A stretch of 64,000 nucleotides of DNA from a virus. Where the stretch lies: IMG/VR virus record IMGVR_UViG_3300034415_000120. One strand, given 5' to 3'. This document shows positions 1-62,675 of this stretch, piece by piece (positions within the stretch are counted from its first letter, which is position 1; every line of letters starts with the position of its first letter). The position numbers were made by a program, and so were the translations under genes. The notes beneath the pieces are model-generated. The model searched no databases. It was not told the origin of the DNA and saw nothing but the letters and a program-made list of their open reading frames with translations.

Positions 1-63
1 TCAATTTTGGGAGAGTGACGGTCTTAGAACTGTAGGGTATGGGTTCAAGTCCCATAATTCCCA
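1..63 (+). tRNA. 3' portion of a tRNA, truncated by the window edge. T-arm ATGGG-TTCAAGT-CCCAT with acceptor 3' strand AATTCCC; anticodon stem ACGGT/ACTGT with an atypical 6-nt loop CTTAGA.
   Basis: Perfect 5-bp T-stem with a GGTTCAAGTCC T-loop at 39-55; acceptor 3' strand 56-62 plus discriminator A63, no encoded CCA. Anticodon stem 18-22/29-33 pairs but its loop is not canonical, so the isotype is unclear (TAG, i.e. Leu, is possible). Confidence 0.45.
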
Positions 64-92: not shown

Positions 93-824
93 TTGGAATG
101 TTTGATTACTAACGGCAAACAGTACATCCGACTTGATTCAAATGGTACTCCGCAAACGTGTGGTCAGGTGCTTGCTGATAAATTTTCAGAAGATAAAGCA
201 CGAAACATTATTAGAAATTTGCCAAAGCCTATGCGGAAATTTCATTTTAATGTGCAGCTTATCCCTGAGATCAACACATCCGTTAAGCAAGTTGAAGAAG
301 AAAAGTTACCAGATGACATCAATGATGTACTAACAGAACTCGATGATTATTATGAGGATTATCAGAGAAATCCTAAATATGACAATCCTTACACCTATCA
401 CGGGGAAACATCTTTAGAAAAAGAAATGTCTGTAAATCATGTAGATATAGGTAATTTCTTTAAGATGGTGATTGAGTGTGTTTCTGATAGAAAAAATTAT
501 ATTGAGAATATGGAATATCTTATCAAAGAATATGATTTAAAAATTCTTGATGTAAGGCACTTTATTAGAGATGAAGACACTAAGTTAGGTACAGTTGCAA
601 TGAGTAGAATTAGTTACTTGTTGCAATATTATGAACGTCAACGGGCTATATGTAAGAGAAATAGAAATTGCGCAAAGATTTTTCAATATCACGTTGAGAG
701 ATTTAAGAGCAAGAAGTATATGAAAGTGATTGATACGATCATGAACTCTAAATATAAATATAGGCGGTTGAGTAAATCTTATCTTGAGGATTATGCGAAA
801 GGCATAACCAGAGAGAAGAAATAA
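93..824 (+). CDS. hypothetical protein (243 aa)
   Basis: Long ORF with phage-typical codon bias; no motif recognised. Confidence 0.5.
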   Translation: MECLITNGKQYIRLDSNGTPQTCGQVLADKFSEDKARNIIRNLPKPMRKFHFNVQLIPEINTSVKQVEEEKLPDDINDVLTELDDYYEDYQRNPKYDNPYTYHGETSLEKEMSVNHVDIGNFFKMVIECVSDRKNYIENMEYLIKEYDLKILDVRHFIRDEDTKLGTVAMSRISYLLQYYERQRAICKRNRNCAKIFQYHVERFKSKKYMKVIDTIMNSKYKYRRLSKSYLEDYAKGITREKK

Positions 825-855: not shown

Positions 856-3156
856 TTGGTGATACAAATGCACTATAAAGATATTCTGGAATCCTATTAT
901 GAGATTAATGAAGATCATCCAGAAAACTCAGCAAGGAAATTACATAATTTTGTAGATAAAATTCTCTCAGAGTTTGGTGGTATCACCGATTTTGATAAGG
1001 ATGAGTGCTATTCAATAGCTAATTTATACATTGCAAAATACATAAAAACTCAATTAGAAGACGGAATTGAGGATTTAGATGAGAAAAAATTTGATGCTTT
1101 TATGTATTGTGGAATAAAAAATAAAATTAAAAGCTATATAACAAAGAAGAATAGAGGAAAGCGTTGCAAAATTATAACTACTAAAGAAGGTGATAAAGAA
1201 GTTAAACAGTATATTTATCCTGTTTCTTTAGACGGTATGAGTGCCGATGATGGAGAAGCTCAATACATAGATGTAATTCCTTCTGATTTTAATTTGGATA
1301 AAGAGTTGGATATATCAGTAGAAAATGAATCAGTACAATTGTTTTTGGATTCGTTACCAGATATTCAGAAGAAATTACTTCTTATGAAAATGGAAAATAT
1401 ACCTGTACATGAAATAAAGAAGTCATTAGAACTTACGGAAAACGCATATGCACAATGTATGCAGTCGATTCGTGAGAATAAGATGATTAATTTATTCAAC
1501 AAAAATAGAAAATACCTTAATCAGATTCAAAAGGAGAGTAAGAAAATGGAGAACACAACTGTTAAAGATGAAGATTTAATCATGGATATTGATACTACAG
1601 ACGGTTATAGGATGGATAAATACACTCTTGAATCTCTGATTGAGGATAAACAGGATGGAGAACTTGATTGTGAGTATATATCTCAGCGTGTTCCGTTTGT
1701 ATGGACAGATGAAAAAGTAAACAAATTCTATTCAAGAGTATTAAATAATCAGCCTATACCAGAGTTGATCGTGTGTGAAATGGTTATACCTGGTATAAAT
1801 GGTGGAAAGATTTCTTATCTAATTGATGGTCTACAACGATTGTCATATGCCGAAGCATTTAGAGAGAATCGTTTTCCAGTTGGAAAGAAAGGTGCAGAAT
1901 TTACGAAAATCCGTTACAGAAAATATAAGTATGATGAAAACGGTAAAAAAGTGCTTGATGAAAACGGTAGAGCAAAATTCACAATTGAGATTTTCGATAT
2001 TTGTGGAAAATACTATAAGGATTTACCAGAATTTTTACAGAAAAGATTTGATAAGTTCAATGTAAACGTAACAAGATTCTTTGATTGTACTCAGGAAATG
2101 ATTGATTATCACTTGAGAAATTATAACAATCATGAAGCTATGAGTAAGAATCAGTATGGAATCACATGTGTATCAAACGAAACATCCAAACATATTAAAG
2201 ATATTTCTCAGAAACATACTTTTATGAAGAACAATATTAAGTGTACTAATAAGAGTTTAAAGATGGGAATGCCGGAAGAAATGGTTTCAAGAGCAATTAT
2301 GACTATGAAATATATTGACGATTGGAAGAAAGAATCTATGGATGTATATAAGTTCCTTGATGCAAATGCGGATGAATCTGATTTTAAACACTTAACATTC
2401 TTACTTGATAGACTTGCAATCGTATGTGATAAAGGTGTGAAAGAACTTTTCAACACTACCAACTTCAATATTTGGGTTGCAGCGTTTGATAAATTTATTG
2501 ATTACGGAATGGATGACACATGGTTTGTACAGTTTATGAAGCAATTTATCAGTGAATTACATAGCAAAGAAATTAACGGACGTTCATATGATGATGTTAA
2601 TACAAAAAATACAAAAGATAAGAATACTGTTAAGAACAAATTAGCAGTAATTGAAGATCTGATGAAAGAATATTTACATATAGAAGATTCTGTTGAAGAA
2701 ATTACAGAAGAATCTGAACCAGAAACTGTTGAAAATGATTTATTTGACACTGCAACAGTCGAAGAATCACCTGATAAACCTATTATTGCAGAAGTAACGG
2801 AGTATTCGGCAATCGGGAACGTGGAAATTGAACACGTTGAGGGAGAAGTAGTAGATAACGATACGCTTGATTTTGTGAAAGAATGTGTTGATAAGAACGT
2901 AACGGACATTGATGTTTCTTATTATGAAGATGATTTAAACACTATTACAAAAGACGTACAGTCTAAGTTACTTGATGAGGTAAACAGAAAATCATTAATT
3001 GCAATTATTGCATATGCTTATATGCAGGATGAAAACTATGAAGAATGGTTTGAGAATTACTTTAAGAGAGTTGATACATATGATGCTGATCAGAAAAAGA
3101 ATTATCTTAATATGAGAAACGATTTGATTTCTTTCAATAAAGGAGCAGTTGCATAA
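856..3156 (+). CDS. Multidomain protein: N-terminal sigma-70 region-4-like HTH (LPDIQKKLLLMKMENIPVHEIKKSLELTENAYAQCMQSIRENK), central DUF262/ParB-like domain (ISQRVPFVWTDEKVNKFYSRVL ... LIDGLQRLSYAEAF), acidic Glu/Asp-rich C-terminal tail.
   Basis: QR..W and (I/V)DGQQR-like signature motifs of DUF262 (GmrSD N-domain family); region-4-like HTH pattern; C-terminal run of E/D-rich low complexity. RBS GGAATTGGTG precedes the start. Confidence 0.55.
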   Translation: MVIQMHYKDILESYYEINEDHPENSARKLHNFVDKILSEFGGITDFDKDECYSIANLYIAKYIKTQLEDGIEDLDEKKFDAFMYCGIKNKIKSYITKKNRGKRCKIITTKEGDKEVKQYIYPVSLDGMSADDGEAQYIDVIPSDFNLDKELDISVENESVQLFLDSLPDIQKKLLLMKMENIPVHEIKKSLELTENAYAQCMQSIRENKMINLFNKNRKYLNQIQKESKKMENTTVKDEDLIMDIDTTDGYRMDKYTLESLIEDKQDGELDCEYISQRVPFVWTDEKVNKFYSRVLNNQPIPELIVCEMVIPGINGGKISYLIDGLQRLSYAEAFRENRFPVGKKGAEFTKIRYRKYKYDENGKKVLDENGRAKFTIEIFDICGKYYKDLPEFLQKRFDKFNVNVTRFFDCTQEMIDYHLRNYNNHEAMSKNQYGITCVSNETSKHIKDISQKHTFMKNNIKCTNKSLKMGMPEEMVSRAIMTMKYIDDWKKESMDVYKFLDANADESDFKHLTFLLDRLAIVCDKGVKELFNTTNFNIWVAAFDKFIDYGMDDTWFVQFMKQFISELHSKEINGRSYDDVNTKNTKDKNTVKNKLAVIEDLMKEYLHIEDSVEEITEESEPETVENDLFDTATVEESPDKPIIAEVTEYSAIGNVEIEHVEGEVVDNDTLDFVKECVDKNVTDIDVSYYEDDLNTITKDVQSKLLDEVNRKSLIAIIAYAYMQDENYEEWFENYFKRVDTYDADQKKNYLNMRNDLISFNKGAVA

Positions 3157-3173
3157 GAAGGGAGAATATATGC

Positions 3174-3752
3174 ATGAGACTTTCAGAAATTAAAATTCCT
3201 ACGGATTTTGAAAGCAGTATTCCAAATACATATAAATATAATAAATGTGAAAGGTATTATAAGGAGAATAATAAGCAGGATAGATACTTAGTTGTAAATG
3301 AAAATAATTATCTTATTGATGGATATATTATGTATCTGGTGCTTAAAAATAATGGAGCTGAATACGGAGATGTACGAATAGTCACATTAAACGGACGTAA
3401 ATATACCGATAGACAGAGAAAACATTATGGGAAATTAATTCCAACAGATAAAAACGATACATACAAAAGAAAGCCTACTACATATGTATACGGTATTCAT
3501 TATAAGGGATTCAATCATAAAACATATATGTGGAGAATACCTCCAACATGGACAACCATGATAAAGGAATTACAACCAGGAGATAAAGTCTATTGTAAAA
3601 CAAGATTTGGAAAAGTTCCTGTAATCGTAACACAAATAGAAACGAAAGACAAAATTGATACGGATATGATTGTGAGAAAAGTTTGTTCACATAAAATAAT
3701 TCGTGATGGAGAAATATTAAAATATGATAAAGGTAAAAATGCTTATGTGTAA
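3174..3752 (+). CDS. ParB N-terminal (sulfiredoxin-fold) nuclease-like domain protein
   Basis: Pattern RYLVVNENNYLIDGYIMYLVLKNNGAEYGDVRIV resembles the ParB-N consensus (..viv....y.liaG.rR..Aak..G...v.v.v). Confidence 0.4.
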   Translation: MRLSEIKIPTDFESSIPNTYKYNKCERYYKENNKQDRYLVVNENNYLIDGYIMYLVLKNNGAEYGDVRIVTLNGRKYTDRQRKHYGKLIPTDKNDTYKRKPTTYVYGIHYKGFNHKTYMWRIPPTWTTMIKELQPGDKVYCKTRFGKVPVIVTQIETKDKIDTDMIVRKVCSHKIIRDGEILKYDKGKNAYV

Positions 3753-7798: not shown

Positions 7799-9025
7799 GT
7801 GAATGCAAATATAAAAGTAAAAAGATGTGAACAAGTAATTATTAGAAAGAATCATCCTAAATTTAAAATGATAGATCAACAGTGCTTTTGCTCTAAGAAT
7901 TTGTATAATGAAGCAAATTATGTATTACGTCAAGAATTTATAAACAATGATAAATACATAAGCTATTATGATATGAATAGAGAATTTAAAACACATGAGA
8001 ATTATAAACTTACATTCAGTCAACCTGCAAATTGTACTTTAAGATTGTTGGATAAAAACTGGAAATCTTATTTTAATGCAATTAAAGATTGGGGTAAAAA
8101 TCCCAATAAATATTTAGGTAAACCAAAACTTCCAAAATACTTAAAGAAAGACGGAAGGTTCATATGGATGATTCCAAATAATCAACTTCATTATAACTAT
8201 GAAAAGGGGACGATTCATATAAGTAATCGTTTAGTAAATGATTATGATTGGAAATGTCGTTGCTTAGGCAGAATAATTCAAGTTAGATTTGTTCCAAGAG
8301 GATCTTGTTATGTGATGGAAATTATCTATGAGACGGAAATTCCAAATACAAATAAAAAACCTAAGAGTATAGCAGCTATTGATTTAGGCGTAAATAATCT
8401 TGTAACTATGACAAATAATATCGGATTAAATCCAATTATTATTAACGGCAAGGGAATTAAAAGCATAAATCAGTGTTATAATAAAAGACTTGCAAAAGAA
8501 AGATCAATGCTGAAAATACGACATAATAAAGATTGGTCAAAGAAATTAGATATAATTACTTTTAAAAGATTTCAGAGAATAAAGAATTACATGCACAATA
8601 CAAGTCATTACATTGTAAGTTGGTGTATTGAAAATAACATTGACACATTAGTAGTTGGTAAAAACAACAAATGGAAACAAGAATCTGAGATGAATAAGAA
8701 ATCTAATCAGAATTTTATAATGATTCCGTACCAGATATTATTACAACAACTTAAATATAAGTGTGAAAATGTTGGAATTAATTACATTGAGCAAGAAGAA
8801 AGTTATACATCTGGAACAAGTTTCTTAGATGAAGAAAATCCAATTAAAGAGAATTATAATAAGAATAGACGTATTCAAAGAGGATTATTCAAAAGTAATT
8901 CTGGGCTATTAATTAATAGTGATGTAAATGGATCATTTCAGATTATGAAAAAAGTATTCCCAAATGCGATTAGTCGATATGGGATAGAGGGTGTTCTAAC
9001 CCCTATAGTTATAAATGTGGCATAA
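7799..9025 (+). CDS. tnpB: TnpB-like (IS200/IS605 OrfB family) protein, degenerate. RuvC-I Asp retained (AAIDLGV); RuvC-II Glu replaced (DTLVVGKNN vs canonical ..vvED.L..); the Zn-finger CxxC...CxxC is absent; the RuvC-III region (NSDVNGSFQI) is retained.
   Basis: Direct alignment against the intact TnpB at 25637 in this window. Overall TnpB architecture, with YTS motif ESYTSGT and DxNAAxNI-like SDVNGSFQI. Confidence 0.75.
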   Translation: MNANIKVKRCEQVIIRKNHPKFKMIDQQCFCSKNLYNEANYVLRQEFINNDKYISYYDMNREFKTHENYKLTFSQPANCTLRLLDKNWKSYFNAIKDWGKNPNKYLGKPKLPKYLKKDGRFIWMIPNNQLHYNYEKGTIHISNRLVNDYDWKCRCLGRIIQVRFVPRGSCYVMEIIYETEIPNTNKKPKSIAAIDLGVNNLVTMTNNIGLNPIIINGKGIKSINQCYNKRLAKERSMLKIRHNKDWSKKLDIITFKRFQRIKNYMHNTSHYIVSWCIENNIDTLVVGKNNKWKQESEMNKKSNQNFIMIPYQILLQQLKYKCENVGINYIEQEESYTSGTSFLDEENPIKENYNKNRRIQRGLFKSNSGLLINSDVNGSFQIMKKVFPNAISRYGIEGVLTPIVINVA

Positions 9026-9094
9026 GTTACATGATTTACTATGAACGTATTTATTATTAAGTACGATAGAATCTTGCTTTTAGGAGGTGAATAA

Positions 9095-11142: not shown

Positions 11143-12126
11143 TTGAGTCATTTAGTTGAAAATAATATTTTATCAGAGAATGGATTAAGAGTATTAAGTC
11201 TATTTGATGGTATATCATGCGGTAGAATTGCATTGGATAGAGCTGGGTTTGAAATAAATGATTATTATGCTTATGAGATTGAACAAAATGCAATCAAGAT
11301 AAGTAGATATAATTACCCATCAATTCATCAATGTGGTGATGTATTTGAGGAAGATTTTAGTAAATATGAAGGTATTGATTTGTTGATTGGAGGCAGTCCA
11401 TGCACCTTTTGGTCAAGTTCCAAGTGTTCAAAAACGGCAAAACATAAGAGGGAAGTTAAACCAGAGGGTGATGGATGGAATTTATTTATGGAATATGTAA
11501 GAGCATTACACGAATCTAAACCAAAATATTTTCTATATGAGAATAATTATAGGATTGATGATTCTATACAAGCTGCAATTACAGAAAATTTAGGTGTTGA
11601 ACCTGTTCTTCTCGATAGTCAGTTAATTTCGGCTCAAAGACGCAAGAGATTATATTGGACAAATATTCCAATAAAAGGAGAACCAGAAGATAAAGGAATT
11701 TTAGTAAAGGATGTGATTACAGATGATTATGAACTAATCAAACATTTTGATGATAGGATAAAAAATACATTAGTCAAATGTGAGAATTACATAAAGTATG
11801 ATTTGAGTGGTAAAGGACATTATTCTCAACAGGATAGGATGTATTTTCTTGATAATAAAGCACCAACTGTTCCGAGATGTAGAACTGAAACTAAATTTAA
11901 TGTTTGGTTAGGTGGTGAAACATATAAGAAAACTTGTCCTGTTGAGATAGAAAGACTTCAAACATTACCAGATGGATATACAGAATTTGGTATGAATGAA
12001 AATGGAAGTGTTGTAAAAATGCCTAAGACAAGAAGATTTGAAGCTATTGGAAATGGTTGGACTGTTGATATGATAGCTTGGATATTTAGTTTTATGAAGG
12101 AGAAATATAATGCAGATAACAGCTAA
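11143..12126 (+). CDS. DNA (cytosine-5)-methyltransferase
   Basis: Motif I LSLFDGISCG; PC motif GGSPCTFWSS; ENV-like YFLYENN; motif VIII QRRKRLYW. TTG start. Confidence 0.8.
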   Translation: MSHLVENNILSENGLRVLSLFDGISCGRIALDRAGFEINDYYAYEIEQNAIKISRYNYPSIHQCGDVFEEDFSKYEGIDLLIGGSPCTFWSSSKCSKTAKHKREVKPEGDGWNLFMEYVRALHESKPKYFLYENNYRIDDSIQAAITENLGVEPVLLDSQLISAQRRKRLYWTNIPIKGEPEDKGILVKDVITDDYELIKHFDDRIKNTLVKCENYIKYDLSGKGHYSQQDRMYFLDNKAPTVPRCRTETKFNVWLGGETYKKTCPVEIERLQTLPDGYTEFGMNENGSVVKMPKTRRFEAIGNGWTVDMIAWIFSFMKEKYNADNS

Positions 12127-12976
12127 AAGTTATTTTAGTGGAGCAGGAGGGATGGATTTAGGAATAGAGGAATCTGGAATTAACATAATTGAATCATATG
12201 AGATAGATAAAAAGTGTTGCGATACTCTGAGAAAGAATTTTAAACATCATGTAAATGAAGCGGATATTACACAGATTACCGTTCTTGATCAGAATGACGC
12301 AGATGTATATATTGGTACATTTCCATGCACACGGTATTCAACTATTGCTGATATTTCAGGCACAAGAACAGGAGATGATTTATTTTTACATTTCTTTAGA
12401 CATATTGCTTTGGCTCAACCAGAAATGTATGTAGTAGAAAATGTTCCTGGAATGCTTAAATTTAAAGTAGTTATGGAAGCATTAACAAAACTACCTGATT
12501 ATTATGTAAGAGTTGAATGTCCTGTTAATGCAAATATGTGGCTACCACAAGAAAGAAAACGATTGATTCTAATTGGAAGTAAAAAACCATTTACCAATTT
12601 TGATTATCCTGATTCTCAACCGTTAAGGCTTAAAGATATTATTGAAAAGGATGCTTCGATTGATATTCCACAATATGTATATAATCGCATCAATGGAAAG
12701 TATAGAGATAAACCAATTATTTCAGATCCAGACAATGATGATCTTGCTCCAACTTGTGTAGCACATTACGCAAAAGATAAAGGAACAAGATTGATTAAAG
12801 ACGGACAGAGAATTAGACCATATACAGTAAAAGAATATGCTAGATTACAAGGCTTTCCAGATTGGTTTGAGTTTTGTGGAACAGATAATGATGCTTATAG
12901 ACAAATTGGTAATGCTGTTGCTGTTCCAATGGGACGTTGGATTGGTAAACAGATTGTAAAATATTTTAATTCATAA
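12110..12976 (+). CDS. DNA (cytosine-5)-methyltransferase (second; overlaps the previous by 17 nt)
   Basis: Motif I YFSGAGGMDLG; PC motif GTFPCTRYS; ENV VVENVPGM; QERKRLILIG. Confidence 0.8.
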   Translation: MQITAKSYFSGAGGMDLGIEESGINIIESYEIDKKCCDTLRKNFKHHVNEADITQITVLDQNDADVYIGTFPCTRYSTIADISGTRTGDDLFLHFFRHIALAQPEMYVVENVPGMLKFKVVMEALTKLPDYYVRVECPVNANMWLPQERKRLILIGSKKPFTNFDYPDSQPLRLKDIIEKDASIDIPQYVYNRINGKYRDKPIISDPDNDDLAPTCVAHYAKDKGTRLIKDGQRIRPYTVKEYARLQGFPDWFEFCGTDNDAYRQIGNAVAVPMGRWIGKQIVKYFNS

Positions 12977-15580: not shown

Positions 15581-16945
15581 ATGAATTACGAAGATTTTCT
15601 AAAACAAAAGGATTATATTCTGGAAAGTAGCGGATTTAATATTGATAAAGATAAATTAAATCCCATGCTATTTGACTTTCAGAAAGATGTAGTAAGATGG
15701 GCGTTAGCAAAAGGTAAAGCTTGTATTTTTGCAGAGTGTGGGCTTGGCAAAACGCCAATGCAATTATCATGGGCGCATCAAGTACATCTACATACGGGCG
15801 GTAAAGTTTTGATTCTTGCACCTCTATCGGTTGCGGATCAGACAAAGAGAGAAGCTGAAAAATTCCATTACAATGCAAAAGTATGTGAGAAACAGGAAGA
15901 TTGTATTGATGGAATTAATATTACAAACTATGAGAAACTAGATAAATTCGTAGCAAATGAATTTGTTGGAGTAGTCTTAGACGAGAGTTCAATTCTTAAA
16001 TCCTACACTGGTAAAGTGAGGACTTCTATTATCGAGAATTTCCAAAATGTTCCCTATAAATTAGCTTGTACTGCGACACCTGCTCCAAATGATTATATGG
16101 AGTTGGGAAATCATTCTGAATTTTGTGGAGTTATGACACGTTCAGAAATGTTATCAATGTTCTTTGTTCATGATGGTGGTCAAACATCTAAGTGGAGATT
16201 AAAAGGTCATGCAAAAGATGTATTTTGGCAATGGATGGCAAGTTGGTCTGTATTTATTGATAATCCATCAAATTTAGGATATGACGGTACAGATTATGAA
16301 TTACCTAATTTGAATATTTATGAAATTATAGTTGATGGAGATGAACCAATCACTGAATCACTTACATTAACAGAGCGTAGAAATGCAAGAAAAGATACTC
16401 TTGAATTAAGATGTCAAAAAGCAGCAGATTTAGTAAATAATTCAGATGAACAATGGTTAGCCTGGTGTGATCTTAATGCAGAAGGTGATAGATTAAATGA
16501 ACTGATTGAAGAAAGTAAAAACGTTCAAGGAAGTGATAAGAATAAATACAAGAGTGAAACAATGCTATCATTTTCTGATGAAAAATTAAAATGTCTTATC
16601 AGCAAGCCACAGCTCGCAGGCTACGGCATGAATTGGCAGAATTGCCACAATGTTATTTTTACTGGACTTTCTGATAGTTTTGAGCAGTATTATCAGGCTG
16701 TAAGAAGATGTTGGCGTTTTGGTCAGACTCAAGAAGTTAATGTATACATAATCATTTCAGCAAAAGAAGGTTGCGTAAAAGAGAATATTGAAAGAAAACA
16801 GTTAGATTTTATCACTATGAGGGATGCAATGATTAATCTAACTAAAGAAATTACTAAGAAAGAGCTTAAATCAACGTGTAGGCTTACTACACCATATGAA
16901 GCAAATACAACAATGAAATTACCAAACTGGGAGGAATTCAAATAA
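15581..16945 (+). CDS. SNF2/DEAD-like family helicase (compact, 454 aa)
   Basis: Motif I AECGLGKT; motif II VVLDESSILK; motif III CTATPAPN; motif VI QAVRRCWRFGQ. Confidence 0.75.
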   Translation: MNYEDFLKQKDYILESSGFNIDKDKLNPMLFDFQKDVVRWALAKGKACIFAECGLGKTPMQLSWAHQVHLHTGGKVLILAPLSVADQTKREAEKFHYNAKVCEKQEDCIDGINITNYEKLDKFVANEFVGVVLDESSILKSYTGKVRTSIIENFQNVPYKLACTATPAPNDYMELGNHSEFCGVMTRSEMLSMFFVHDGGQTSKWRLKGHAKDVFWQWMASWSVFIDNPSNLGYDGTDYELPNLNIYEIIVDGDEPITESLTLTERRNARKDTLELRCQKAADLVNNSDEQWLAWCDLNAEGDRLNELIEESKNVQGSDKNKYKSETMLSFSDEKLKCLISKPQLAGYGMNWQNCHNVIFTGLSDSFEQYYQAVRRCWRFGQTQEVNVYIIISAKEGCVKENIERKQLDFITMRDAMINLTKEITKKELKSTCRLTTPYEANTTMKLPNWEEFK

Positions 16946-17853
16946 TGATGAACGTAATTGATCAAGCAGTAGCAAACAGATATGCACTTTATCATGGAGA
17001 TAGTGTAGAAATTACTAAGGAGATTCCAGATAATAGCATCCACTACACTATCTTTTCCCCACCATTTTCACAGTTATACGTGTACTCTAATTCAGATAGA
17101 GATATGGGTAATTGTAAAGGGGATGAAGAATTTTACAATCATTTCAAATATCTTGCAAAAGAATTATATAGAATTACAATGCCTGGACGACTTCTGAGTT
17201 TTCACTGTATGGATTTACCTCTTATGAAATCAAGAGATGGTGTAATTGGACTAAAAGATTTTCCTGCGCTCATGCTTAAAATCTTTCAGGATTGTGGATT
17301 CATCTACCATAGTAAAGTAACTATTTGGAAGAATCCTGTTACAGAAATGCAAAGAACAAAAGCACTTGGGCTTTTACATAAACAGATTAAGAAAGATAGT
17401 AGTATGAGTCGTCAAGGACTTCCAGATTATGTGATTACGGTTAGGAAGCCCGGTGATAATCCAGAACGAGTTGAACACACAAATGAATCATTTCCTGTTA
17501 ATGTATGGCAAAATTACGCTTCACCTGTATGGATGGACATTAGACAGAGTGATACATTACAGAGAAAATCAGCAAGATCTGAACAAGATGAGAAACATAT
17601 TTGTCCATTACAGCTTGAAGTAATTCAGAGATGTATTGAATTATGGACAAATCCAAACGATATTGTGTTTGATCCGTTTGGTGGAATTGGTTCTACTCCA
17701 TATGTTGCACTTAAATTAGGAAGAAGAGGAATTGCAAGTGAATTAAAAGATAGCTATTTTGAGCAGTTAAAGAAAAATGTAGAGTCTGTGGCTGCCGAAG
17801 AACCAGAAGTATTTCCAGTTGGAGAAAAGAGTATTGAGGATGTAGTCGCATAA
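16945..17853 (+). CDS. beta-class DNA N6-adenine/N4-cytosine methyltransferase
   Basis: Motif IV IFSPPF precedes motif I FDPFGGIGSTPYVALKLGRRGIASEL (PF01555-like order). Start overlaps the helicase stop (TAATGATG). Confidence 0.8.
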   Translation: MMNVIDQAVANRYALYHGDSVEITKEIPDNSIHYTIFSPPFSQLYVYSNSDRDMGNCKGDEEFYNHFKYLAKELYRITMPGRLLSFHCMDLPLMKSRDGVIGLKDFPALMLKIFQDCGFIYHSKVTIWKNPVTEMQRTKALGLLHKQIKKDSSMSRQGLPDYVITVRKPGDNPERVEHTNESFPVNVWQNYASPVWMDIRQSDTLQRKSARSEQDEKHICPLQLEVIQRCIELWTNPNDIVFDPFGGIGSTPYVALKLGRRGIASELKDSYFEQLKKNVESVAAEEPEVFPVGEKSIEDVVA

Positions 17854-21612: not shown

Positions 21613-21807
21613 ATGGAGAATAAGATGAGTGAAACAGTTAAAGCAAGGAATAGAAATACAATGAAAGAAGCAAAATCAAAAGCCGAAAGAATTGGATTTG
21701 TACCTTCTGCGTGTTTGGAATGTCTGATGTATCAAGCTGGATTAAGACCAGGTACAAATAATCATTGTAGTAAATGTGTCGATGGAATAGGTATATTTCG
21801 TGGATAA
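21613..21807 (+). CDS. small hypothetical protein
   Basis: ORF. Confidence 0.35.
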   Translation: MENKMSETVKARNRNTMKEAKSKAERIGFVPSACLECLMYQAGLRPGTNNHCSKCVDGIGIFRG

Positions 21808-21841
21808 AATGTTGTTTTCATGGATAAGAAAGGAAAAATCT

Positions 21842-22744
21842 ATGCCAATAAAAGATGATTTAGGAACTAGAATGAAAACTTTTTATGAGGAAATTCCAAA
21901 AACAAAACTTATGCGCCGCTGCCCAGTTGCTATCAGAATTGACGGAAAATCATTTCATACATTTACAAGAAAATTTGAGAAGCCATTTGATGAAGTTTTA
22001 ATTGAATCTATGCAGAAAACAATGAAATATCTTTGTGAAAATATTCAAGGATGTGTATTGGGATATACCCAGTCTGATGAGATTACATTGATTCTTGTTG
22101 ATTATAAGAAATTAAATTCTTCTGCATGGTTTGATTATGAAGTTCAGAAAATGACTTCTATATCAGCTTCTATGGCAACACTAGCCTTCAATGATTTTTT
22201 TAAAAAAGGTATAACAAAAGAAAATAGTGCCTTTACTGATGAATGGTTGGACAATGGAGATTTTAATCCAAAATATAAAGATGAAGAATTAAATAAATTA
22301 TGGATAACTCATAAAAGAGCATCCGAAAAAGGTGCAATGTTTGACGCACGTTGCTTTAATATTCCGAAAGAAGAAGTCACAAATCTTATTTACTGGCGAC
22401 AATTAGACGCTTCTCGTAATTCAATTCAAATGGTAGGTCGAGCTAATTTTTCTCATAAAGAACTTCAAAATAAATCATGCAACCAGATTCAAGATATGTT
22501 AATGGAACAGAAAGGTATTAACTGGAACGATCTTCCTATATATCAAAAAAGAGGAAGTTGTTGTATTAAAATTAAAGATAAAATTGATGAAGTGATGGTA
22601 AACGAACAACAAGAATTTGGAGAAGATAAGGTAACAAAGATAGTTTCCATAGAAAAGAGTCATTGGATCATTGATAAAGAAATTCCTATTTTTAAAGGTG
22701 ATAATAGAAAATATATTGATAAGTTGATTAATGTAGGAGAATAA
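21842..22744 (+). CDS. Thg1-like protein (tRNA-His guanylyltransferase family, 3'-5' nucleotidyltransferase)
   Basis: VAIRIDGKSFHTFTRKFEKPFDE matches the Thg1 motif ([24 protein letters not shown]). CVLGYTQSDEITLIL matches IVIAYGQSDEYSFVF. LIYWRQLDASRNS matches YLSWRQADCHINN. Both catalytic Asp are present. The alternative start at 21800 is less favoured; an RBS precedes 21842. Confidence 0.8.
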   Translation: MPIKDDLGTRMKTFYEEIPKTKLMRRCPVAIRIDGKSFHTFTRKFEKPFDEVLIESMQKTMKYLCENIQGCVLGYTQSDEITLILVDYKKLNSSAWFDYEVQKMTSISASMATLAFNDFFKKGITKENSAFTDEWLDNGDFNPKYKDEELNKLWITHKRASEKGAMFDARCFNIPKEEVTNLIYWRQLDASRNSIQMVGRANFSHKELQNKSCNQIQDMLMEQKGINWNDLPIYQKRGSCCIKIKDKIDEVMVNEQQEFGEDKVTKIVSIEKSHWIIDKEIPIFKGDNRKYIDKLINVGE

Positions 22745-24898: not shown

Positions 24899-24902
24899 CA
24901 GT

Positions 24903-24918
24903 TGAAAGTAAACTTTCA
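24903..24918. promoter_or_regulatory. TGAAA-N6-TTTCA palindromic motif (extended to GTTGAAAG-N4-CTTTCAAC)
   Basis: One of at least 12 occurrences: 4357-4372, 9807-9822, 13822-13837, 18477-18492, 22982-22997, 24903-24918, 27876-27891, 32591-32606, 36094-36109, 38726-38741, 51964-51979, 53546-53561. Imperfect TAAAA variants at 17872, 21055, 29399 and 34231. Confidence 0.5.
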
Positions 24919-24985
24919 ACTAAGTTCTTAGAGTATTTCTGCTCAAACTTTCCAATGATTTATAATTGAATAGAGGTGAAATTAA

Positions 24986-25408
24986 ATGACAATGATAAGT
25001 GTAGAACCTGCAATATGTAAGAAATGCGGTACAAAACAACCATATACAGTTGTACACAGTTGGAATAAATTAATTGATCCAATATATCCTGCAAATAACA
25101 TCTGTAAAAATTGTGGTGAGAAATTGACATCTGATGATATTGATATGAATAAATGTAGTCCAGATCATAGATTATGGACAAGAGGTGTAAAAATATACAA
25201 TTATTGGATGGACAATTGTTTAACTAGAGAAGAATATGATAAATACGATTTTGAACATGATTTGGATAAAATACAAAGAAAAGTAGAAAATGAGATGGTT
25301 TCACTAGGATTAATTCCAAGTATGCAAGAAGAAATCAAATATAAGAAAAAATATTATGAATGCCTAGAAAACAAGTATAGGAATAAAGGTGATAGCAATG
25401 ATACATAA
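24986..25408 (+). CDS. double Zn-ribbon protein
   Basis: CKKCGT...CKNCGEK. Confidence 0.45.
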   Translation: MTMISVEPAICKKCGTKQPYTVVHSWNKLIDPIYPANNICKNCGEKLTSDDIDMNKCSPDHRLWTRGVKIYNYWMDNCLTREEYDKYDFEHDLDKIQRKVENEMVSLGLIPSMQEEIKYKKKYYECLENKYRNKGDSNDT

Positions 25409-25636: not shown

Positions 25637-26758
25637 GTGGAAAGAGCATTTAAGTATAGAATTTATCCAACAAAGAAACAACAAAAGTTAATTCAGAAAA
25701 CATTTGGATGTTGTCGATTTGTATATAATTATTATCTCAATATGAGGAAAGAATCATATGAAAAAGATAAAATATCTGTAACTTATAATATGTGTTCAAA
25801 AGATATGACAAGTTTGAAGAAACAATTGGAATGGTTGAAAGAACCAGATAAAGACGCTTTGCAAAAATCATTGAAAGATTTAGATATGGCATATCAGAAG
25901 TTCTTTAAAGAACATACAGGATATCCAAAATTCAAATCTAAAAAGACCAGATATAAGTCTTATAGAACTAGCTGTACAAATAACAATATCAGATATGATA
26001 ACAGAAAGATCAAACTTCCAAAAATCGGATGGATTAAAACCAAGGATAAACAAATTCCACAAGGTAAAATATTGAATGCTACAATTTCACAAGAACCAAA
26101 TGGACATTATTACTGTTCATTATGTTGTTCTGATGTAGAATTTCTACAATTCACAAAAACAGATAAAAATATTGGTATTGACTTAGGAATCTGTGATTTT
26201 GCAATATTTTCTGATGGAACGAAAATTGAGAATCCAAGATTTTATGAAAAATCAGAAAACAAACTCGTTAAATTACAACGTGAATTATCAAGAAAAACAA
26301 TTGGTAGTAATCGTTGGGATAAAGCAAGAATTAAAGTTGCAAATTTACAAAAACATATTTCAAATCAACGTAAAGATTTTTTACAAAAATTAACCACAGA
26401 TATTGTAAAGAATTACGATGTGATCTGCATTGAGGATTTAGATATTATATCTATGAAAGAAACAGATTCTACTATTCGTAATAAACGAGTTGGTGATGTT
26501 TCATGGTCAGAGTTCAGAAGAATGCTTACATATAAAACTCAATGGTATGGAAAAGAATTATCTGTCATAGGTAGATTCTATCCATCTTCTCAGATTTGTC
26601 ATATTTGTGGAAATAAGGATGGGAGAAAATCAGAAGATATTAGATTCTGGACTTGTCCTAATTGTAAATCTGAATTAGACAGAGATATAAACGCAGCAAT
26701 AAATATTCTCAATGAAGGTTTGAGAATAAGAACCGTAGGAACTACGGGGATAGCCTAG
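25637..26758 (+). CDS. tnpB: TnpB (IS200/IS605 OrfB family RNA-guided endonuclease), apparently intact
   Basis: N-terminus MERAFKYRIYPTKKQQKLIQKTFGCCRFVYNYYL. RuvC-I GIDLGI; RuvC-II CIEDLDI; Zn finger CHICGN...CPNCKS; RuvC-III DRDINAAINIL. Confidence 0.85.
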   Translation: MERAFKYRIYPTKKQQKLIQKTFGCCRFVYNYYLNMRKESYEKDKISVTYNMCSKDMTSLKKQLEWLKEPDKDALQKSLKDLDMAYQKFFKEHTGYPKFKSKKTRYKSYRTSCTNNNIRYDNRKIKLPKIGWIKTKDKQIPQGKILNATISQEPNGHYYCSLCCSDVEFLQFTKTDKNIGIDLGICDFAIFSDGTKIENPRFYEKSENKLVKLQRELSRKTIGSNRWDKARIKVANLQKHISNQRKDFLQKLTTDIVKNYDVICIEDLDIISMKETDSTIRNKRVGDVSWSEFRRMLTYKTQWYGKELSVIGRFYPSSQICHICGNKDGRKSEDIRFWTCPNCKSELDRDINAAINILNEGLRIRTVGTTGIA

Positions 26759-29615: not shown

Positions 29616-30260
29616 GTGAAAGTATTAGGATTATTTGCAGGTACAAGATCTATTGAAAAAGCATTTGAATCCAGAGGACATGAAGTTTTTAGTGTAGAAT
29701 GGAATAAAGATTTTAAAAACATTGATTTATATGATGATGTTAATAATATTACAGCGAAAGATATATTAGAGAAATTTGGGCATCCAGATGTAATCTGGGC
29801 GAGTCCTGATTGTACAACATTTTCTATTGCGGCTATTAGTCATCATAGAAGAAAGAATCCAGAAACAGGTAATCTTGATCCTGTAAGTGATTATGCGAAA
29901 TTCTGTGATAAAACTGATCAACACGTTCTATCCTTAATCAAGGAATTAAACCCAACTTTTTATTTTATTGAAAACCCTAGAGGTGGTATGAGAAAGATGA
30001 CATGGATGCAAGGTTTACCACGTTATACGGTGACTTATTGCAAATACGGAGATGACAGGATGAAACCTACTGATATTTGGACAAATCATCCTAATCCTAA
30101 ATTCTTACCTATGTGTAAAAATGGTGATCCATGTCATGTTTCTGCTCCAAGAGGTAGTAGAACTGGAACACAAGGACTAAAAGGTAGTGTTGAGAGAAGT
30201 AAAATACCACAGAAATTGTGTGAGCATATTGTAGATATTTGTGAAGAATATATTAAGTAA
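29616..30260 (+). CDS. small DNA (cytosine-5)-methyltransferase-like protein (214 aa)
   Basis: Motif I VLGLFAGTRS; PC motif SPDCTTFSIA; ENV-like YFIENPRGGM. Short for a canonical C5-MTase. GTG start. Confidence 0.55.
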   Translation: MKVLGLFAGTRSIEKAFESRGHEVFSVEWNKDFKNIDLYDDVNNITAKDILEKFGHPDVIWASPDCTTFSIAAISHHRRKNPETGNLDPVSDYAKFCDKTDQHVLSLIKELNPTFYFIENPRGGMRKMTWMQGLPRYTVTYCKYGDDRMKPTDIWTNHPNPKFLPMCKNGDPCHVSAPRGSRTGTQGLKGSVERSKIPQKLCEHIVDICEEYIK

Positions 30261-30842: not shown

Positions 30843-31859
30843 TTGCTGAGTAAAGCCAATAGTATAGAAGAATTATTAGAAAGTTGCCCTAAGAATCAAA
30901 CAATTGGAGATAACCTGGTTAGGGCATGGTCAAAGATTAATAGTAGTAAGTATAAAAATATTCTATGTAGCATCTCAGGTGGTTCTGATAGTGATGTAAT
31001 GTTAGACATTGTGTGGAGATGCGATAAAGACAATAAAGTTACATATGTGTGGTTTGATACAGGTCTTGAATATCAAGCTACAAAAGATCATTTGAAATAT
31101 CTTGAAGAGAAATATAACATAGAGATTCATCCATATAAAGCAATTAAACCAATTCCTTCGTCCTGTAAAAAATATGGACAACCATTCATTTCTAAGCAAG
31201 TCAGCGAATTTATCCAACGATTACAAGCACATAATTTCAAGTGGGAAGATGAAGATTTTGATACCTTGATGAAAAAATATCCAAAATGTAAATCTGCACT
31301 AGCATGGTGGTGTAATGCAAAAGGCAATGGAAGTAGTTTTAATATTTCTCGTAATAAATATCTGAAAGAATTTATGGTTGCAAATCCACCCACGTTTAAA
31401 ATATCAAATAAGTGTTGTAAATATGCTAAGAAAGATGTTATGCATAAATGTATTTCAGAGTCCAATTATGATCTTGACATATATGGTGTAAGAAAAGCAG
31501 AAGGTGGTTCAAGAGCAACTGCGTATAAATCATGCTTTGATGAAACAGATGCAGGATGTGATAATTATAGACCTTTATTCTGGTATAAAGATTCCGACAA
31601 GATTGATTATGAAGGAGCTTATTTTGTTGAGCATAGTAATTGTTACACTGAATATGGATTAAAACGTACTGGATGCGCTGGTTGTCCATTTGGTAGAGAT
31701 TTTGAATATGAATTAGAAGTTATTCGGAAATATGAATCGAAATTATTTAAAGCGGTGAATAATATATTTGGAGAATCTTATGAGTATACAAGAAGATATA
31801 GAGAATTTTGTAAACAGATGAAGGAGAAAGAAAAGGATAACAATGAAATGTGTAAGTAA
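30843..31859 (+). CDS. PAPS reductase-family PP-loop protein (phage 'phosphoadenosine phosphosulfate reductase'-like)
   Basis: PP-loop SISGGSDSD; GVRKAEGGSRA motif; C-terminal Cys cluster CAGCPFG. TTG start. Confidence 0.65.
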   Translation: MLSKANSIEELLESCPKNQTIGDNLVRAWSKINSSKYKNILCSISGGSDSDVMLDIVWRCDKDNKVTYVWFDTGLEYQATKDHLKYLEEKYNIEIHPYKAIKPIPSSCKKYGQPFISKQVSEFIQRLQAHNFKWEDEDFDTLMKKYPKCKSALAWWCNAKGNGSSFNISRNKYLKEFMVANPPTFKISNKCCKYAKKDVMHKCISESNYDLDIYGVRKAEGGSRATAYKSCFDETDAGCDNYRPLFWYKDSDKIDYEGAYFVEHSNCYTEYGLKRTGCAGCPFGRDFEYELEVIRKYESKLFKAVNNIFGESYEYTRRYREFCKQMKEKEKDNNEMCK

Positions 31860-34599: not shown

Positions 34600-34764
34600 T
34601 GTGGGTTATCTTTTTACTAAGTGCTGTTGGTTTTGCAATTGGCGCACTTGTATTATTTTCAATTGGTTGGTTAATGCTCCATAAGATTGAAATGCACATT
34701 AATCGTCAAGATGATGATTATGAAAACGAAAAAGAGAATAAAAAGAAAGAGGACAAAGAATGAA
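34600..34764 (+). CDS. small single-TM protein (54 aa, below the ORF cutoff) with an acidic/lysine C-tail
   Basis: MWVIFLLSAVGFAIGALVLFSIGWLML...; overlaps the start of the SPFH gene (operon partner). Confidence 0.4.
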
Positions 34765-35707
34765 GAAAAAATCAGCAACAAGTAAAGTAGTGGCAGGATT
34801 AGTAATTGCATGTGCAGTAATTGGAGGGATTTTTACAATTTCTCACATTAAGATTATTGGTACTGGTAAGGTGGGTATAACCTATACGTATTCATCTGGG
34901 GTAAAAGATGAGTTATTAAAGCCAGGTGCGCATTTTATTCCACCAATGGAATATATGAAAGAATTTTCAACAAGTAATGAGATTCTTGTGTTATCAAAAG
35001 ATAGCAGAGATGGAAGTAAAGATGATGATTCTTTTAAGGTTGCAACATCAGATGATGCTAGTATTGCAATTAGTTTCCAAATGACATACCGATACATTGA
35101 AGATCAAGTAATTGATACATATAAAAAATTCAAAGGCATGGATGGAACAGATATTGTTGAAAATCGTGTTAAGACAGTTTTAAAATCTAAAATTTCTGAG
35201 GTCACAACTGATTATTCTATGATGGATATTTATTCTGGTAATCGTGCGCAACTTAACGAAGCGATTACAGAATATCTAAATAAAGACTTTTCTCAAAAAT
35301 ACGGCATTGAAGTTCTCGATGCATCTATTATTGACGTTCACCCAGATAAGAAATTAAAAAAGGCAATTGATAATCGTGTTACCGCACTACAGGAAAAGCA
35401 ACAAGCTCAAGCTGAACAGGAAAAAGTAAAAGTACAAAAACAGACTGAGCAGTTACAAGCCGAAGCAGATGCAAATATTGAGATTACAAAAGCGCAAGCT
35501 GATGCAGAGAAAACAAAAATTAAAGCGGAAGCCAATGCTGAAAAGACTAGAATTGCAGCGGAAGCACAAGCAAAGGCGAATAAAGAATTGAGTTCTTCCA
35601 TTACTGATGAGCTTATCAGAATGAAAGAAGCCGAAGCGCATTATAAGAATGGTTGGGTTACTGTACAAGGTGCAGGCACAACTGTAGTGGACGCAACAGA
35701 GAAATAA
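34760..35707 (+). CDS. SPFH/band-7 (stomatin/prohibitin/HflC-like) membrane protein
   Basis: N-terminal TM. SPFH core (IPPMEY...). C-terminal alanine/glutamate coiled coil (AEQEKVKVQKQTEQLQAEADANIEITKAQADAEKTKIKAEANAEKTRIAAEAQAKANKEL) typical of HflK/C-like proteins. Confidence 0.7.
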   Translation: MKKKSATSKVVAGLVIACAVIGGIFTISHIKIIGTGKVGITYTYSSGVKDELLKPGAHFIPPMEYMKEFSTSNEILVLSKDSRDGSKDDDSFKVATSDDASIAISFQMTYRYIEDQVIDTYKKFKGMDGTDIVENRVKTVLKSKISEVTTDYSMMDIYSGNRAQLNEAITEYLNKDFSQKYGIEVLDASIIDVHPDKKLKKAIDNRVTALQEKQQAQAEQEKVKVQKQTEQLQAEADANIEITKAQADAEKTKIKAEANAEKTRIAAEAQAKANKELSSSITDELIRMKEAEAHYKNGWVTVQGAGTTVVDATEK

Positions 35708-61499: not shown

Positions 61500-62116
61500 T
61501 TATAGATTTTAGACAAAAAATAAATGATGTATTTATAACTAATGAAGGGTATAAAATTCAAATCATTGACTACCTTGATACTAAAAATGTTCTAATTAAT
61601 TTTGTAGATAGACCAGATGTTCAAATTTGGTCTACTCTGCAAAATATTAAGAAAGGACAAATTAAAAATCCATATCATAGATCTGTATATAATAAAGGTT
61701 ATTATGGCATAGGGAAATATACCGCAAGAAAAAATAACGTAAAAACAGAAGAGTATGTAAAATGGATAAGTATGTTTGTAAGATGTTATGACGAAAAATA
61801 TCATATGAGACAACATACATATATTGGCTGTAAAGTATCAGAAGAATTTTGTAATTTCCAAAATTTTGCTGAATGGTATTCACATTATAAATACGATTGT
61901 AAATATCCATTAGAAATCGACAAAGATTTGTTATATGAAGGAAATAAAATTTATTCTCCAAGAACTTGTTGTGTGATACCTAAAGAAATTAATACAACAT
62001 TAAATAGTAAAAGACATGACATTTCTACAATGAAAAGTTTATACCAAAAATATAAAATGGATGTTCCTTATTATATAAGAACTGAATTGTATGAACTAAC
62101 AAAGGAGAATAAATAA
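61496..62116 (+). CDS. Free-standing ORF between nrdD exon 2 and nrdG; candidate homing-endonuclease-like or DNA-binding protein
   Basis: GTG start overlapping the nrdD exon-2 stop. The position (between nrd genes, next to an intron) is typical of freestanding HEGs. Only weak AP2-like similarity (YNKGYYGIGKYTARKN); no clear HNH/GIY-YIG/LAGLIDADG motif. Confidence 0.3.
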   Translation: MIIDFRQKINDVFITNEGYKIQIIDYLDTKNVLINFVDRPDVQIWSTLQNIKKGQIKNPYHRSVYNKGYYGIGKYTARKNNVKTEEYVKWISMFVRCYDEKYHMRQHTYIGCKVSEEFCNFQNFAEWYSHYKYDCKYPLEIDKDLLYEGNKIYSPRTCCVIPKEINTTLNSKRHDISTMKSLYQKYKMDVPYYIRTELYELTKENK

Positions 62117-62117
62117 T

Positions 62118-62675
62118 ATGAATTATCATAATATAACATATCCAGATCAAAACAATGGTGATGGATTAAGAATTGTATTATGGGTAGCTGGTTGTGAACA
62201 TCATTGTGCAAATTGCCAGAATCAACAAACGTGGAATCCGCAAAGTGGGATTCCATTTGATGAAAATTCAATGAATGAAATACGAAATGAGTTAAAAAAA
62301 GACTATATTAGTGGCATTACATTCAGTGGTGGTGACCCTTTACACCCTAAAAATGTACAAAATGTTCTGAAAATCGTAGATGAAATCCGAGTTTCATATC
62401 CCACTAAAAATATATGGTTATACACAGGATATACTTGGGAAGAAATCTGGATTAAAGATATAGTAAAAACTGGTGATAGAATTAAAAATATGAGACAAAA
62501 AGCAATTACAAATCTTCGCAGACAAGTAGTAAGTATGTGTGACGTACTTATAGATGGGAGATATGTTGATGAACTCAGAGATGTATCACTACATTGGATA
62601 GGTTCATCAAATCAGAGGGTTATTAATGTACAAGAAACATTGGAACAAAAACAAATAGTATTATGGGAGTCTTAA
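62118..62675 (+). CDS. nrdG: Anaerobic ribonucleotide reductase activating protein NrdG (radical SAM)
   Basis: N-terminus MNYHNITYPDQNNGDGLRIVLWVAGCEHHCANCQNQQTW matches the NrdG consensus (..VLFVSGC.H.C.GC.N..TW). Confidence 0.8.
   Translation: MNYHNITYPDQNNGDGLRIVLWVAGCEHHCANCQNQQTWNPQSGIPFDENSMNEIRNELKKDYISGITFSGGDPLHPKNVQNVLKIVDEIRVSYPTKNIWLYTGYTWEEIWIKDIVKTGDRIKNMRQKAITNLRRQVVSMCDVLIDGRYVDELRDVSLHWIGSSNQRVINVQETLEQKQIVLWES

Follow-up and report, generated by a model that had tools for sequence, protein, structure and literature searches.

A phage sigma factor with a predicted ParB-like control module in large phages of gut Lachnospiraceae

A gene at 856..3156 of a 64,000-nt stretch of virus DNA (IMG/VR record IMGVR_UViG_3300034415_000120, called here the window) encodes a protein which, as judged from profiles and a structural model, is a two-domain sigma factor followed by a ParB-DUF262 domain, an NsnA-type ParBDB domain, an acidic linker and a helical C-terminal domain, and is nuclease-free. 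The reading preferred here, with a probability of about 0.55, is that of a phage sigma factor with a built-in control module, elsewhere separately encoded, which would be ParB-like, dependent on nucleoside triphosphates (NTP) and DNA-binding, and would target or gate the sigma factor. What appears to be new is the kind of module to which the sigma factor is fused or paired. The usual means of controlling sigma factors are anti-sigma proteins, proteolysis and small fused sensor domains, and the ParB/Srx-fold sensors known so far come from chromosome partition and anti-phage restriction (GmrSD, SspE, BrxU and Menshen). A pairing of sigma and ParB-DUF262 was not found described in literature searches that included the re-classification of the extracytoplasmic function (ECF) sigma factors, the Menshen/NsnA survey and the GmrSD phylogenomics paper; the original prediction, made from the DNA letters before any search, had already supposed the architecture to be undescribed. 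The window is AT-rich (about 30% G+C) and carries nearly all of its genes on the + strand.

Gene and predicted domains

The gene is a single uninterrupted open reading frame (ORF), and its residues are numbered here from the TTG at 856. Since the homologues align to a start reading MHYKD, and a GGTGA Shine-Dalgarno sequence precedes the ATG at 868, this ATG is the probable start and the product most likely has 762 aa. This is also the length of P0001, the representative of a 98%-identical cluster of 177 members found on at least 48 contigs of up to about 146 kb. The cluster, together with the recurrence of the fused form in 73 loci, excludes an assembly artefact or a frameshift, so the single gene first proposed stands. 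Public annotations of the family are purely automatic ("sigma24 family", "ECF sigma..." or "hypothetical"). Searched by itself, the window protein gave no match in Pfam or PHROGs, and its domains are therefore recognised solely through relatives, profiles and structure. The AlphaFold2 (AF2) model has a mean predicted local distance difference test score (pLDDT) of 72 and a predicted template modelling score (pTM) of 0.46; a Foldseek search with this model returned BrxU first (E = 6.5e-5), then ParB bound to cytidine triphosphate (CTP), the ECF sigma factor sigmaH, SspE and sulfiredoxin. The anticipated order of a sigma-like helix-turn-helix (HTH), DUF262 and an acidic region is borne out by relatives, profiles and model, and the same architecture recurs among the homologues. 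The parts of the gene are as follows:

856..3156, + strand: sigma/ParB-DUF262 fusion gene, 766 codons from TTG 856, stop codon 3154-3156
934..1164, + strand: sigma2 domain, residues ~27-103
1165..1323, + strand: sigma2-sigma4 linker, residues 104-156, with a region-3.2-like motif "SLD..D...D.IPSDFD", a predicted hairpin and no sigma3 domain
1324..1536, + strand: sigma4 domain with HTH, residues ~157-227
1537..1602, + strand: disordered junction, residues 228-249; in split versions the sigma gene stops and the DUF262 gene starts here
1603..2145, + strand: predicted ParB-DUF262 (ParB/Srx-fold) nucleotide-binding domain, residues 250-430, motifs Q277-R278...W283, D324-G-x-Q327-R328 and N424
2146..2688, + strand: helical NsnA-type ParBDB domain, putatively DNA-binding, residues 431-611
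2689..2859, + strand: acidic disordered linker, residues 612-668, 57 aa with 19 D/E and 1 K/R
2860..3153, + strand: C-terminal helical module, residues 669-766, ~95 aa, W731 and Q746 invariant

The N-terminus had been likened to region 4 of sigma-70. The sigma similarity is present in the domain annotation (Sigma70_r2, TIGR02937 and SigA matches), but its scope is larger, as profiles and model indicate a complete two-domain sigma factor, sigma2 plus sigma4. Among 28 diverse relatives, the Pfam family Sigma70_r2 was matched in seven (best 5.3e-7) and region-4/GerE models in three, the sigma4 models matched in relatives being Sigma70_r4, r4_2, Sigma70_ECF and GerE; divergent members add matches to Sigma70_r4_2, Sigma70_ECF and GmrSD_N. 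The window protein itself matches NCBIfam TIGR02937 (sigma70-ECF superfamily) over residues 23-196 (model positions 12-152 of 165, E = 2.4e-5), at 24 bits against a cut-off of 42.9 bits. In a profile search against PDB sequences the better matches were all sigma factors (SigA, E = 2e-4), as were 26 of the 27 matches altogether; the remaining one was a weak match to an ArsR-type repressor (E = 0.65). In the same search the alignment extends from region 2 into region 4, with the sigma linker on region 3.2 of SigA and a gap at the expected position of sigma3. AF2 resolves helices for sigma2 (27-103) and sigma4 (157-227) and leaves the linker between them poorly ordered, with low pLDDT at residues 120-156 and values below 50 across residues 215-249. 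K102, R103, D126, S143 and F145 are invariant in the homologue alignment. The sigma ORFs of the split versions span positions 3-211 of the sigma hidden Markov model (HMM). By its sequence, the sigma part is a divergent lineage that stands outside every named sigma subgroup.

The core that follows (residues 250-611) is modelled with confidence (pLDDT 80-95), and its ParBDB part is all-helical. GmrSD_N/DUF262 was matched by Pfam in 6 of the 28 diverse relatives (best 1.1e-7), and the fold matches of the DUF262 domain are BrxU, SspE, CTP-bound ParB, PadC, the N-terminal domain of pNOB8 ParB (ParB-N) and sulfiredoxin. NsnA, GmrSD, SspE and DndB share a ParB-DUF262 NTPase domain (QRxxxW, DGxQR, FxxxN) and an eight-helix DNA-binding domain named ParBDB, and such modules are regarded as DNA sensors (PMC12065111; Li et al., 2025). 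Residues 250-430 and 431-611 fit this layout. Two relatives, P0173 (1.7e-11) and P0017 (3.7e-11; model positions 17-383 of 385), match the PADLOC model of NsnA; neither the window protein nor P0024 gave a match to it. Across 326 unique family sequences, the pocket positions are kept as follows: Q277 (314/316), R278 (316/316), W283 (301/316), D/E324 (318/318), G325 (317/318), Q327 (306/318), R328 (316/318) and N424 (323/323), with the D/E-G-x-Q-R motif as a whole in at least 306 of 318. These near-invariant motifs suggest selection for nucleotide binding.

Some standalone members (P0176, P0185) carry IDGGHR in place of DGxQR, which recalls the DGQHR variant of DndB-type regulators. Sigma-less DUF262 proteins were also seen: a 181-aa GmrSD_N protein in L001-L003 (7160-7705), about 2.3 kb upstream of the sigma gene, and in MT835469.1, the complete 176-kb relative, a 330-aa DUF262 paralogue at 154203-155195 on the - strand, in the opposite-strand arm (E = 6e-26 to the family DUF262 HMM). 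Searches with the module HMMs gave no paralogue of any module of the fusion protein in the window or in loci L001-L003.

A phage-borne type IV restriction enzyme similar to GmrSD/BrxU would fit the structural matches, the best of which are BrxU and SspE. The enzymes of this group, which comprises DUF262-DUF1524 type IV restriction systems and phosphorothioate-sensing nickases, also share an N-terminal DUF262 with a DGQQR-type motif. They differ in their DUF1524 HNH nuclease, and no DUF1524/HNH domain was found in any of the 38 members scanned. An HNH or His-Me-finger reading of H569...N582 was ruled out by the conservation of these residues (212/316 and 148/316, respectively), and the restriction enzyme can be regarded as effectively refuted. 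Downstream of the fusion gene there is no NsnB ABC-ATPase, NsnC or nuclease effector; the genes there encode small DUF5839 or unknown proteins with no PADLOC match. Given the lack of DUF1524/HNH and of NsnB/NsnC, the locus qualifies neither as a GmrSD-type restriction enzyme nor as a Menshen system. With the NsnA proteins of Menshen, especially "type II", it shares the ParB-DUF262 and ParBDB core and the habit of gaining N-terminal DNA-binding modules. It differs from them in that no NsnB or NsnC follows, in an N-terminal module that is a complete sigma factor and not a sensor resembling a winged HTH (wHTH), in its extra acidic linker and C-terminal domain, and in being phage-encoded and not placed in defence islands. 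The N-terminal sensors listed in the Menshen survey are wHTH, inactive restriction endonuclease, PUA and sigma-region-1.1-like domains, with no sigma factor among them (PMC12065111).

The end of the protein had been described as an acidic tail of about 150 aa, similar to Ocr in mimicking DNA. The acidic stretch is real; its sequence and the model, nonetheless, indicate a flexible linker of 57 aa plus a small folded helical domain, unlike an Ocr-like mimic. The linker (net charge about -18, pLDDT below 50) varies among cluster representatives from 1 to 255 aa, with a median of 23, and is acidic in general; many relatives have a linker of 12-25 residues in place of the acidic stretch. Within this variable linker the ~170-kb clade keeps two peptides, DDLFDTE and IAEVTEYSAIGN.EIE.V.GEVVD, which may be short docking motifs. 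A clamp-binding role for DDLFDTE would be speculative: the window showed no clamp gene, its unannotated replication proteins having proved to be a DNA polymerase and a primase. The C-terminal module, modelled as a helical bundle at residues 669-763, stays with the DUF262 gene in split versions and was not detected in the same ORF in 12 of 104 loci. A profile search with it against PDB sequences was empty; the module possibly serves dimerisation.

These features bear on the idea of an anti-defence factor coupled to transcription, in which the acidic region would mimic DNA or the DUF262 domain would be a decoy for host DUF262 defences. The charge of segment 612-668 and the heavy investment of the phage in anti-restriction, with three DNA methyltransferases, would be in line with it. 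Ocr-type mimics are folded proteins with a rigid and conserved acidic surface, a feature that residues 612-668 do not have, being predicted to be disordered, poorly conserved and, in many members, shrunk as noted above. A decoy role, for its part, leaves unexplained both the invariant nucleotide pocket and the obligate pairing with sigma. Such a factor is thus very improbable.

Fused and split forms in the family

A profile of residues 250-766, searched against 1.84 billion cluster representatives, retrieved 1,477 clusters at E < 1e-3 and 325 at E < 1e-30. The family, which exceeds 1,000 clusters at 90% identity, is found in phages and prophages of gut Lachnospiraceae. Its members fall into two length classes, one of about 700-770 aa with the module starting at residue 210-260 and another of about 460-550 aa with the module N-terminal. 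Among the best 150 hits, the 148 new representatives comprised 71 with a sigma domain, 2 with divergent sigmas, 68 standalone proteins and 7 N-terminally truncated fragments; at 50% identity, about half of the clusters are fused and half standalone.

Genomic context was read in 115 loci from metagenomes, IMG/VR and GTDB genomes, 106 of which were informative. The DUF262 module is fused to sigma in 73 of these and lies directly after a separate sigma gene in the other 33; a module lacking a sigma partner was found in none of the 106. The separate sigma genes encode 186-229 aa, match the sigma-module HMM at E = 1e-25 to 1e-67, and end 0-80 nt before the DUF262 gene or overlap it, the latter gene having its own ribosome-binding site. 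Fused and split forms each recur in several clades. From the near-equal shares of fused and standalone clusters it follows that the link has survived repeated fusion or fission, and the sequences thus bear the classic fusion/fission signature of two cooperating proteins.

The modules do not evolve as one block. Correlations of pairwise distances in 50 non-redundant fused proteins were high for sigma4 with DUF262 (r 0.74) and with ParBDB (r 0.78), and lower for sigma2 with sigma4 (r 0.40), with DUF262 (r 0.24) and with the C-terminal module (r 0.49). Two groups of relatives illustrate the mosaic by their identity to the window protein:

P0017-like: sigma2 71-76%, sigma4 22-28%, DUF262/ParBDB 28-36%, C-terminal module 59-96%
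P0024-like: sigma2 21-33%, sigma4 37-49%, DUF262 65-78%, ParBDB 48-56%, C-terminal module 24-43%

A swap of the sigma4 + DUF262 block was seen between otherwise similar phages, and nucleotide identity to MT835469.1 restarts at window position 2658, the end of ParBDB. Module correlations and mosaic identities indicate that sigma4, whose HTH reads the -35 element, and the ParB-like core behave as one exchangeable cassette.

Proposed control of the sigma factor

According to the preferred reading, the protein would be made from the early arm of the phage genome after infection or induction, and its sigma part would bind the host RNA polymerase core and redirect it to phage promoters. The ParB-like part would engage DNA in a nucleotide-dependent manner, as its relatives do: DUF262-type modules in GmrSD and SspE sense the state of DNA, and ParB and KorB are NTP switches on DNA. 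This engagement would either tether the sigma factor to phage DNA or free it from an inactive state, and sigma activity would thereby be licensed only when the DNA or the timing is right. The domain layout is the same as that of the ParB clamps, which by analogy makes an NTP-dependent dimerisation around DNA plausible, and a DNA-loaded, sigma-carrying dimer is conceivable.

Such a dimer would be a functional analogue of the sigma factor gp55 of phage T4. For late transcription in T4, gp55 (with gp33) is anchored to the sliding clamp gp45, which is loaded on DNA. Were the ParB-like module to clamp or track DNA, a sigma activity dependent on a DNA-bound tether would be common to both, and T4 would be the closest functional analogue. 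There is no homology between the two systems: the T4 one uses a PCNA-like ring and short clamp-binding tails, the protein described here would use a ParB/Srx-fold NTPase in that part, and the window shows no clamp gene. ParB, KorB, VirB and DndB are repressors, anti-silencers or partition factors in which nucleotide-dependent engagement of DNA controls promoters. ParB, KorB and VirB share with the fusion protein the ParB/Srx nucleotide-binding domain, a DNA-binding domain, a flexible linker and a small C-terminal domain; the DNA-binding domain is here ParBDB and not the HTH of the ParB clamps. To our knowledge, none of ParB, KorB, VirB or DndB is joined to a sigma factor.

Searches for promoters led to a non-coding DNA element of ~50 bp that precedes the sigma operon in many loci, even where the proteins are just 15-30% identical. 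As a consensus it reads approximately AGCGaTTCTGCnAAaTTTTTCCAat, then N13-22, then TAAATAtAG (in short form AGCGaTTCTGC..TTTCCAat..TAAATAtAG), and a tRNA gene usually comes next. A nucleotide profile placed the element upstream of sigma in 52 of 101 loci, with 2 other matches in 1.35 Mb of locus DNA. L001 has a copy at ~8990-9045, and MT835469.1 has exactly two (29702-29748 and 54557-54603), both in the early arm. A regular-expression scan of the window gave one further intergenic copy:

24929..24979, + strand: second copy of the element (nhmmer E = 5.2e-5), after an inverted repeat at 24900-24921 and before a zinc-ribbon gene at 24986..25408

The gene at 24986-25408 encodes a 140-aa protein with weak matches to zinc ribbons (TFIIB-type Zn_Ribbon_TF and DZR), which may be a small transcription factor. 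Phages that differ in their sigma4/DUF262 cassettes carry the element unchanged, so that it is probably not what these cassettes recognise specifically; a promoter, an operator and a loading site are the candidate roles. Enrichment of intergenic k-mers, in the window and, strand-aware, in the 176-kb relative, yielded just ribosome-binding sites and AT-rich words.

Several points weigh against the preferred reading. Binding of RNA polymerase, nucleotide and DNA by the fusion protein is predicted from sequence and model, and AF2 gives no confident packing between the domains (pTM 0.46). The sigma matches of nearly all relatives are below the curated family cut-offs, the sole exception seen being P0151 (Sigma70_ECF, 23.8 against 21.1 bits). 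Many of the 106 loci are closely related and their counts are hence not independent. Sigma4 adjoins DUF262 in the sequence, and this physical linkage may explain part of their co-variation. Finally, neither the window nor the complete 176-kb relative yielded a sigma-dependent promoter motif, and the conserved element is unlikely to be the promoter of sigma itself, occurring in two copies per genome and being identical across differing cassettes.

A more specific version is tentative and clearly less probable. In it, the NTP-gated sensor or clamp would recognise the phage's own DNA, by its methylation or modification state or by a loading site, and only then license sigma. If this were true, an epigenetic or topological check of self and non-self, built from a defence-type ParB/Srx NTPase, would operate inside promoter recognition.

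It is also possible, at much the same modest level of probability, that the module acts like an anti-sigma factor, the DUF262 and C-terminal parts holding sigma2/sigma4 inactive until a nucleotide or metabolic signal arrives, with no targeting to DNA. The position of the DUF262 gene directly 3' of the sigma gene in split loci is the classic sigma/anti-sigma order; the co-variation of sigma4 with DUF262/ParBDB is what a contact interface would produce; and the C-terminal module is a small helical bundle, like anti-sigma domains. Furthermore, ECF sigma factors with fused C-terminal regulatory extensions are known, this being the second commonest mode of ECF regulation (PMC7826278), a precedent that serves the preferred reading as well. 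The extensions described include SnoaL, TPR, Cys-rich, DUF1835 and transmembrane domains, for instance in ECF41/56 (SnoaL-like), ECF42 (TPR) and ECF238 (Cys-rich) (PMC7826278; PMC3426412); among the 19 known groups none that is ParB-like is listed, and phage sigmas were not captured in that classification (PMC7826278). As in those proteins, a sigma2-sigma4 core is followed here by a C-terminal extension, which may take the place of a separate anti-sigma factor, and the extension type tracks the phylogeny of the sigma core. The differences are an extension of ~540 aa (ParB-DUF262, ParBDB, linker and helical module), outside the 19 listed groups, that also exists as a separate downstream gene, and a phage-borne sigma factor that mostly scores below the curated ECF cut-offs and whose long linker contains a region-3.2 motif of the sigma70 type. 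Against autoinhibition, profile and fold searches revealed no likeness to any anti-sigma domain, AF2 predicts no packing of the domains, and sigma2, the other usual contact of anti-sigma factors, co-varies poorly with DUF262. The ParB-DUF262 and ParBDB pair is, moreover, DNA-binding wherever studied (PMC12065111).

Phage context and meaning for gut phages

The sigma/DUF262 gene heads the replication and nucleotide-metabolism (early) arm of a large phage of an anaerobe. Its immediate neighbours in the window are:

1..63, + strand: tRNA gene, 3' part, cut at the window edge, with T-arm/acceptor sequence GGGTTCAAGTCCCATAATTCCCA
93..824, + strand: upstream partner gene, 243 aa, no known family, with a small N-terminal beta domain and a long helical hairpin
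3174..3752, + strand: downstream neighbour, 192 aa, with DUF5839 in its C-terminal half and ~70 N-terminal aa that are weakly ParB-N-like (LxDGY, no Arg)

Intact tRNA-like sequences occur at the site equivalent to the first of these in L001, L005, L006, L033, L047 and L050. By eye, the tRNA of the relatives has a Met-like CAT or Gln-like TTG anticodon, and its location between the conserved element and the 243-aa gene is an unusual tRNA site. The 243-aa protein has invariant K45, H156, K188 and R224, matched nothing in Pfam or among PDB sequences, and may be a third component of the sigma/DUF262 module. When cassette genes were counted over 105 loci, its equivalent, a protein of ~233 aa, stood immediately before the sigma gene in 79; a PemK/MazF-like toxin gene was present in 62, a divergently transcribed HTH gene of the XRE type in 54 and a gene for ~98 aa in 35. 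The order is HTH gene, PemK-like gene, ~98-aa gene, ~233-aa gene and then the sigma/DUF262 gene or gene pair; the toxin and HTH genes are present, for example, in L001-L006 and L114. The HTH gene of L004 is bordered by metabolic genes of bacterial type, a sign of a prophage edge or of a region resembling a lysogeny switch.

The 192-aa neighbour had been taken for a second ParB-N-like protein. Of this only a weak hint survives: the best PDB profile match is indeed to pNOB8 ParB-N (5k5d), at E = 0.1 and aligned over LxDGY, but the arginine of the motif is absent (DGYIMY), the Pfam family ParBc is matched in none of 11 members or 82 homologues, and this DUF5839 gene is found in 30 of the 105 loci only.

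The cassette also bears on the possibility of a prophage switch for defence or superinfection exclusion, in which DUF262 would sense foreign, for example modified, DNA and sigma would transcribe a toxic or protective operon such as the PemK-like gene. The characterised DUF262 systems are all defence sensors (PMC12065111), relatives match the PADLOC NsnA model, the PemK-like gene is frequent in the cassettes, L004 shows its prophage edge, and some members reside in bacterial genomes such as Faecalicatena contorta. These points are offset by the lack of NsnB/NsnC or a nuclease effector at the locus, by the position of the PemK-like gene upstream of sigma, on the same strand and not behind a recognisable sigma-dependent promoter, and by the fact that the same cassette heads the early/replication arm of ~170-kb phages with their own replication machinery and no signs of a resident defence island. 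Such a switch is improbable. Nothing was found to favour the anti-defence or exclusion role first proposed for the protein; transcription control, the role favoured here, is what the strict pairing with sigma and the leading position in the early/replication arm point to.

Among the products of the arm are DnaB, a primase, a DHH protein, a DNA polymerase, RecD2, a Gam-like protein and an NAD-dependent ligase. It also encodes two C5 and one N6/N4 DNA methyltransferases, an SNF2-type helicase, Thg1 and a PAPS-reductase-like protein, and there are further an SPFH protein, an AAA_24 protein, thymidylate synthase, NrdD/NrdG and two TnpB proteins. The C5-cytosine methyltransferases are two overlapping ORFs of 327 and 288 aa at 11143-12976, and at 15581-17853 an SNF2/ResIII-type helicase is joined to the N6/N4 methyltransferase; the phage DNA is probably multiply methylated. 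A Thg1-like tRNA-His guanylyltransferase (3'-5' polymerase) is encoded at 21800-22744 (Pfam Thg1, 2e-29). The PAPS-reductase-domain protein and the SPFH/Band-7 protein lie at 30843-31859 and 34760-35707, respectively; proteins with the former domain are frequent partners of ParB-like or DNA-modification functions. The TnpB genes (IS200/IS605 OrfB, Cas12f-like TNB), at 7799-9025 and 25637-26758, have no adjacent TnpA among the scanned ORFs, and in the relatives L002 and L006 TnpB is found at different positions. Between nrdD (59006-61114) and nrdG (62118-62675) there is an HNH endonuclease gene (61496-62116) resembling those of homing endonucleases.

The hosts, as taken from genome titles, are Lachnospiraceae: Coprococcus, Roseburia, Lachnospira, Acetatifactor, Hungatella, Anaerosporobacter and an isolate of Faecalicatena contorta; one relative is binned with a "Ruminococcus" metagenome-assembled genome. 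The family is abundant in phages of this dominant group of human gut bacteria, and its natural split and fused variants, together with a prophage in the cultured Faecalicatena contorta NLAE-zl-C134 (NZ_QGDS01000003.1, around 445-459 kb), make the proposal directly testable. If gating or targeting by the ParB-like module is true, it would be a new principle of transcription control, an NTP- and DNA-dependent licensing of a sigma factor, and would mean that phages reuse a sensor domain of the defence type for the regulation of their own genes. It would also offer a way into the developmental programme of large gut phages.

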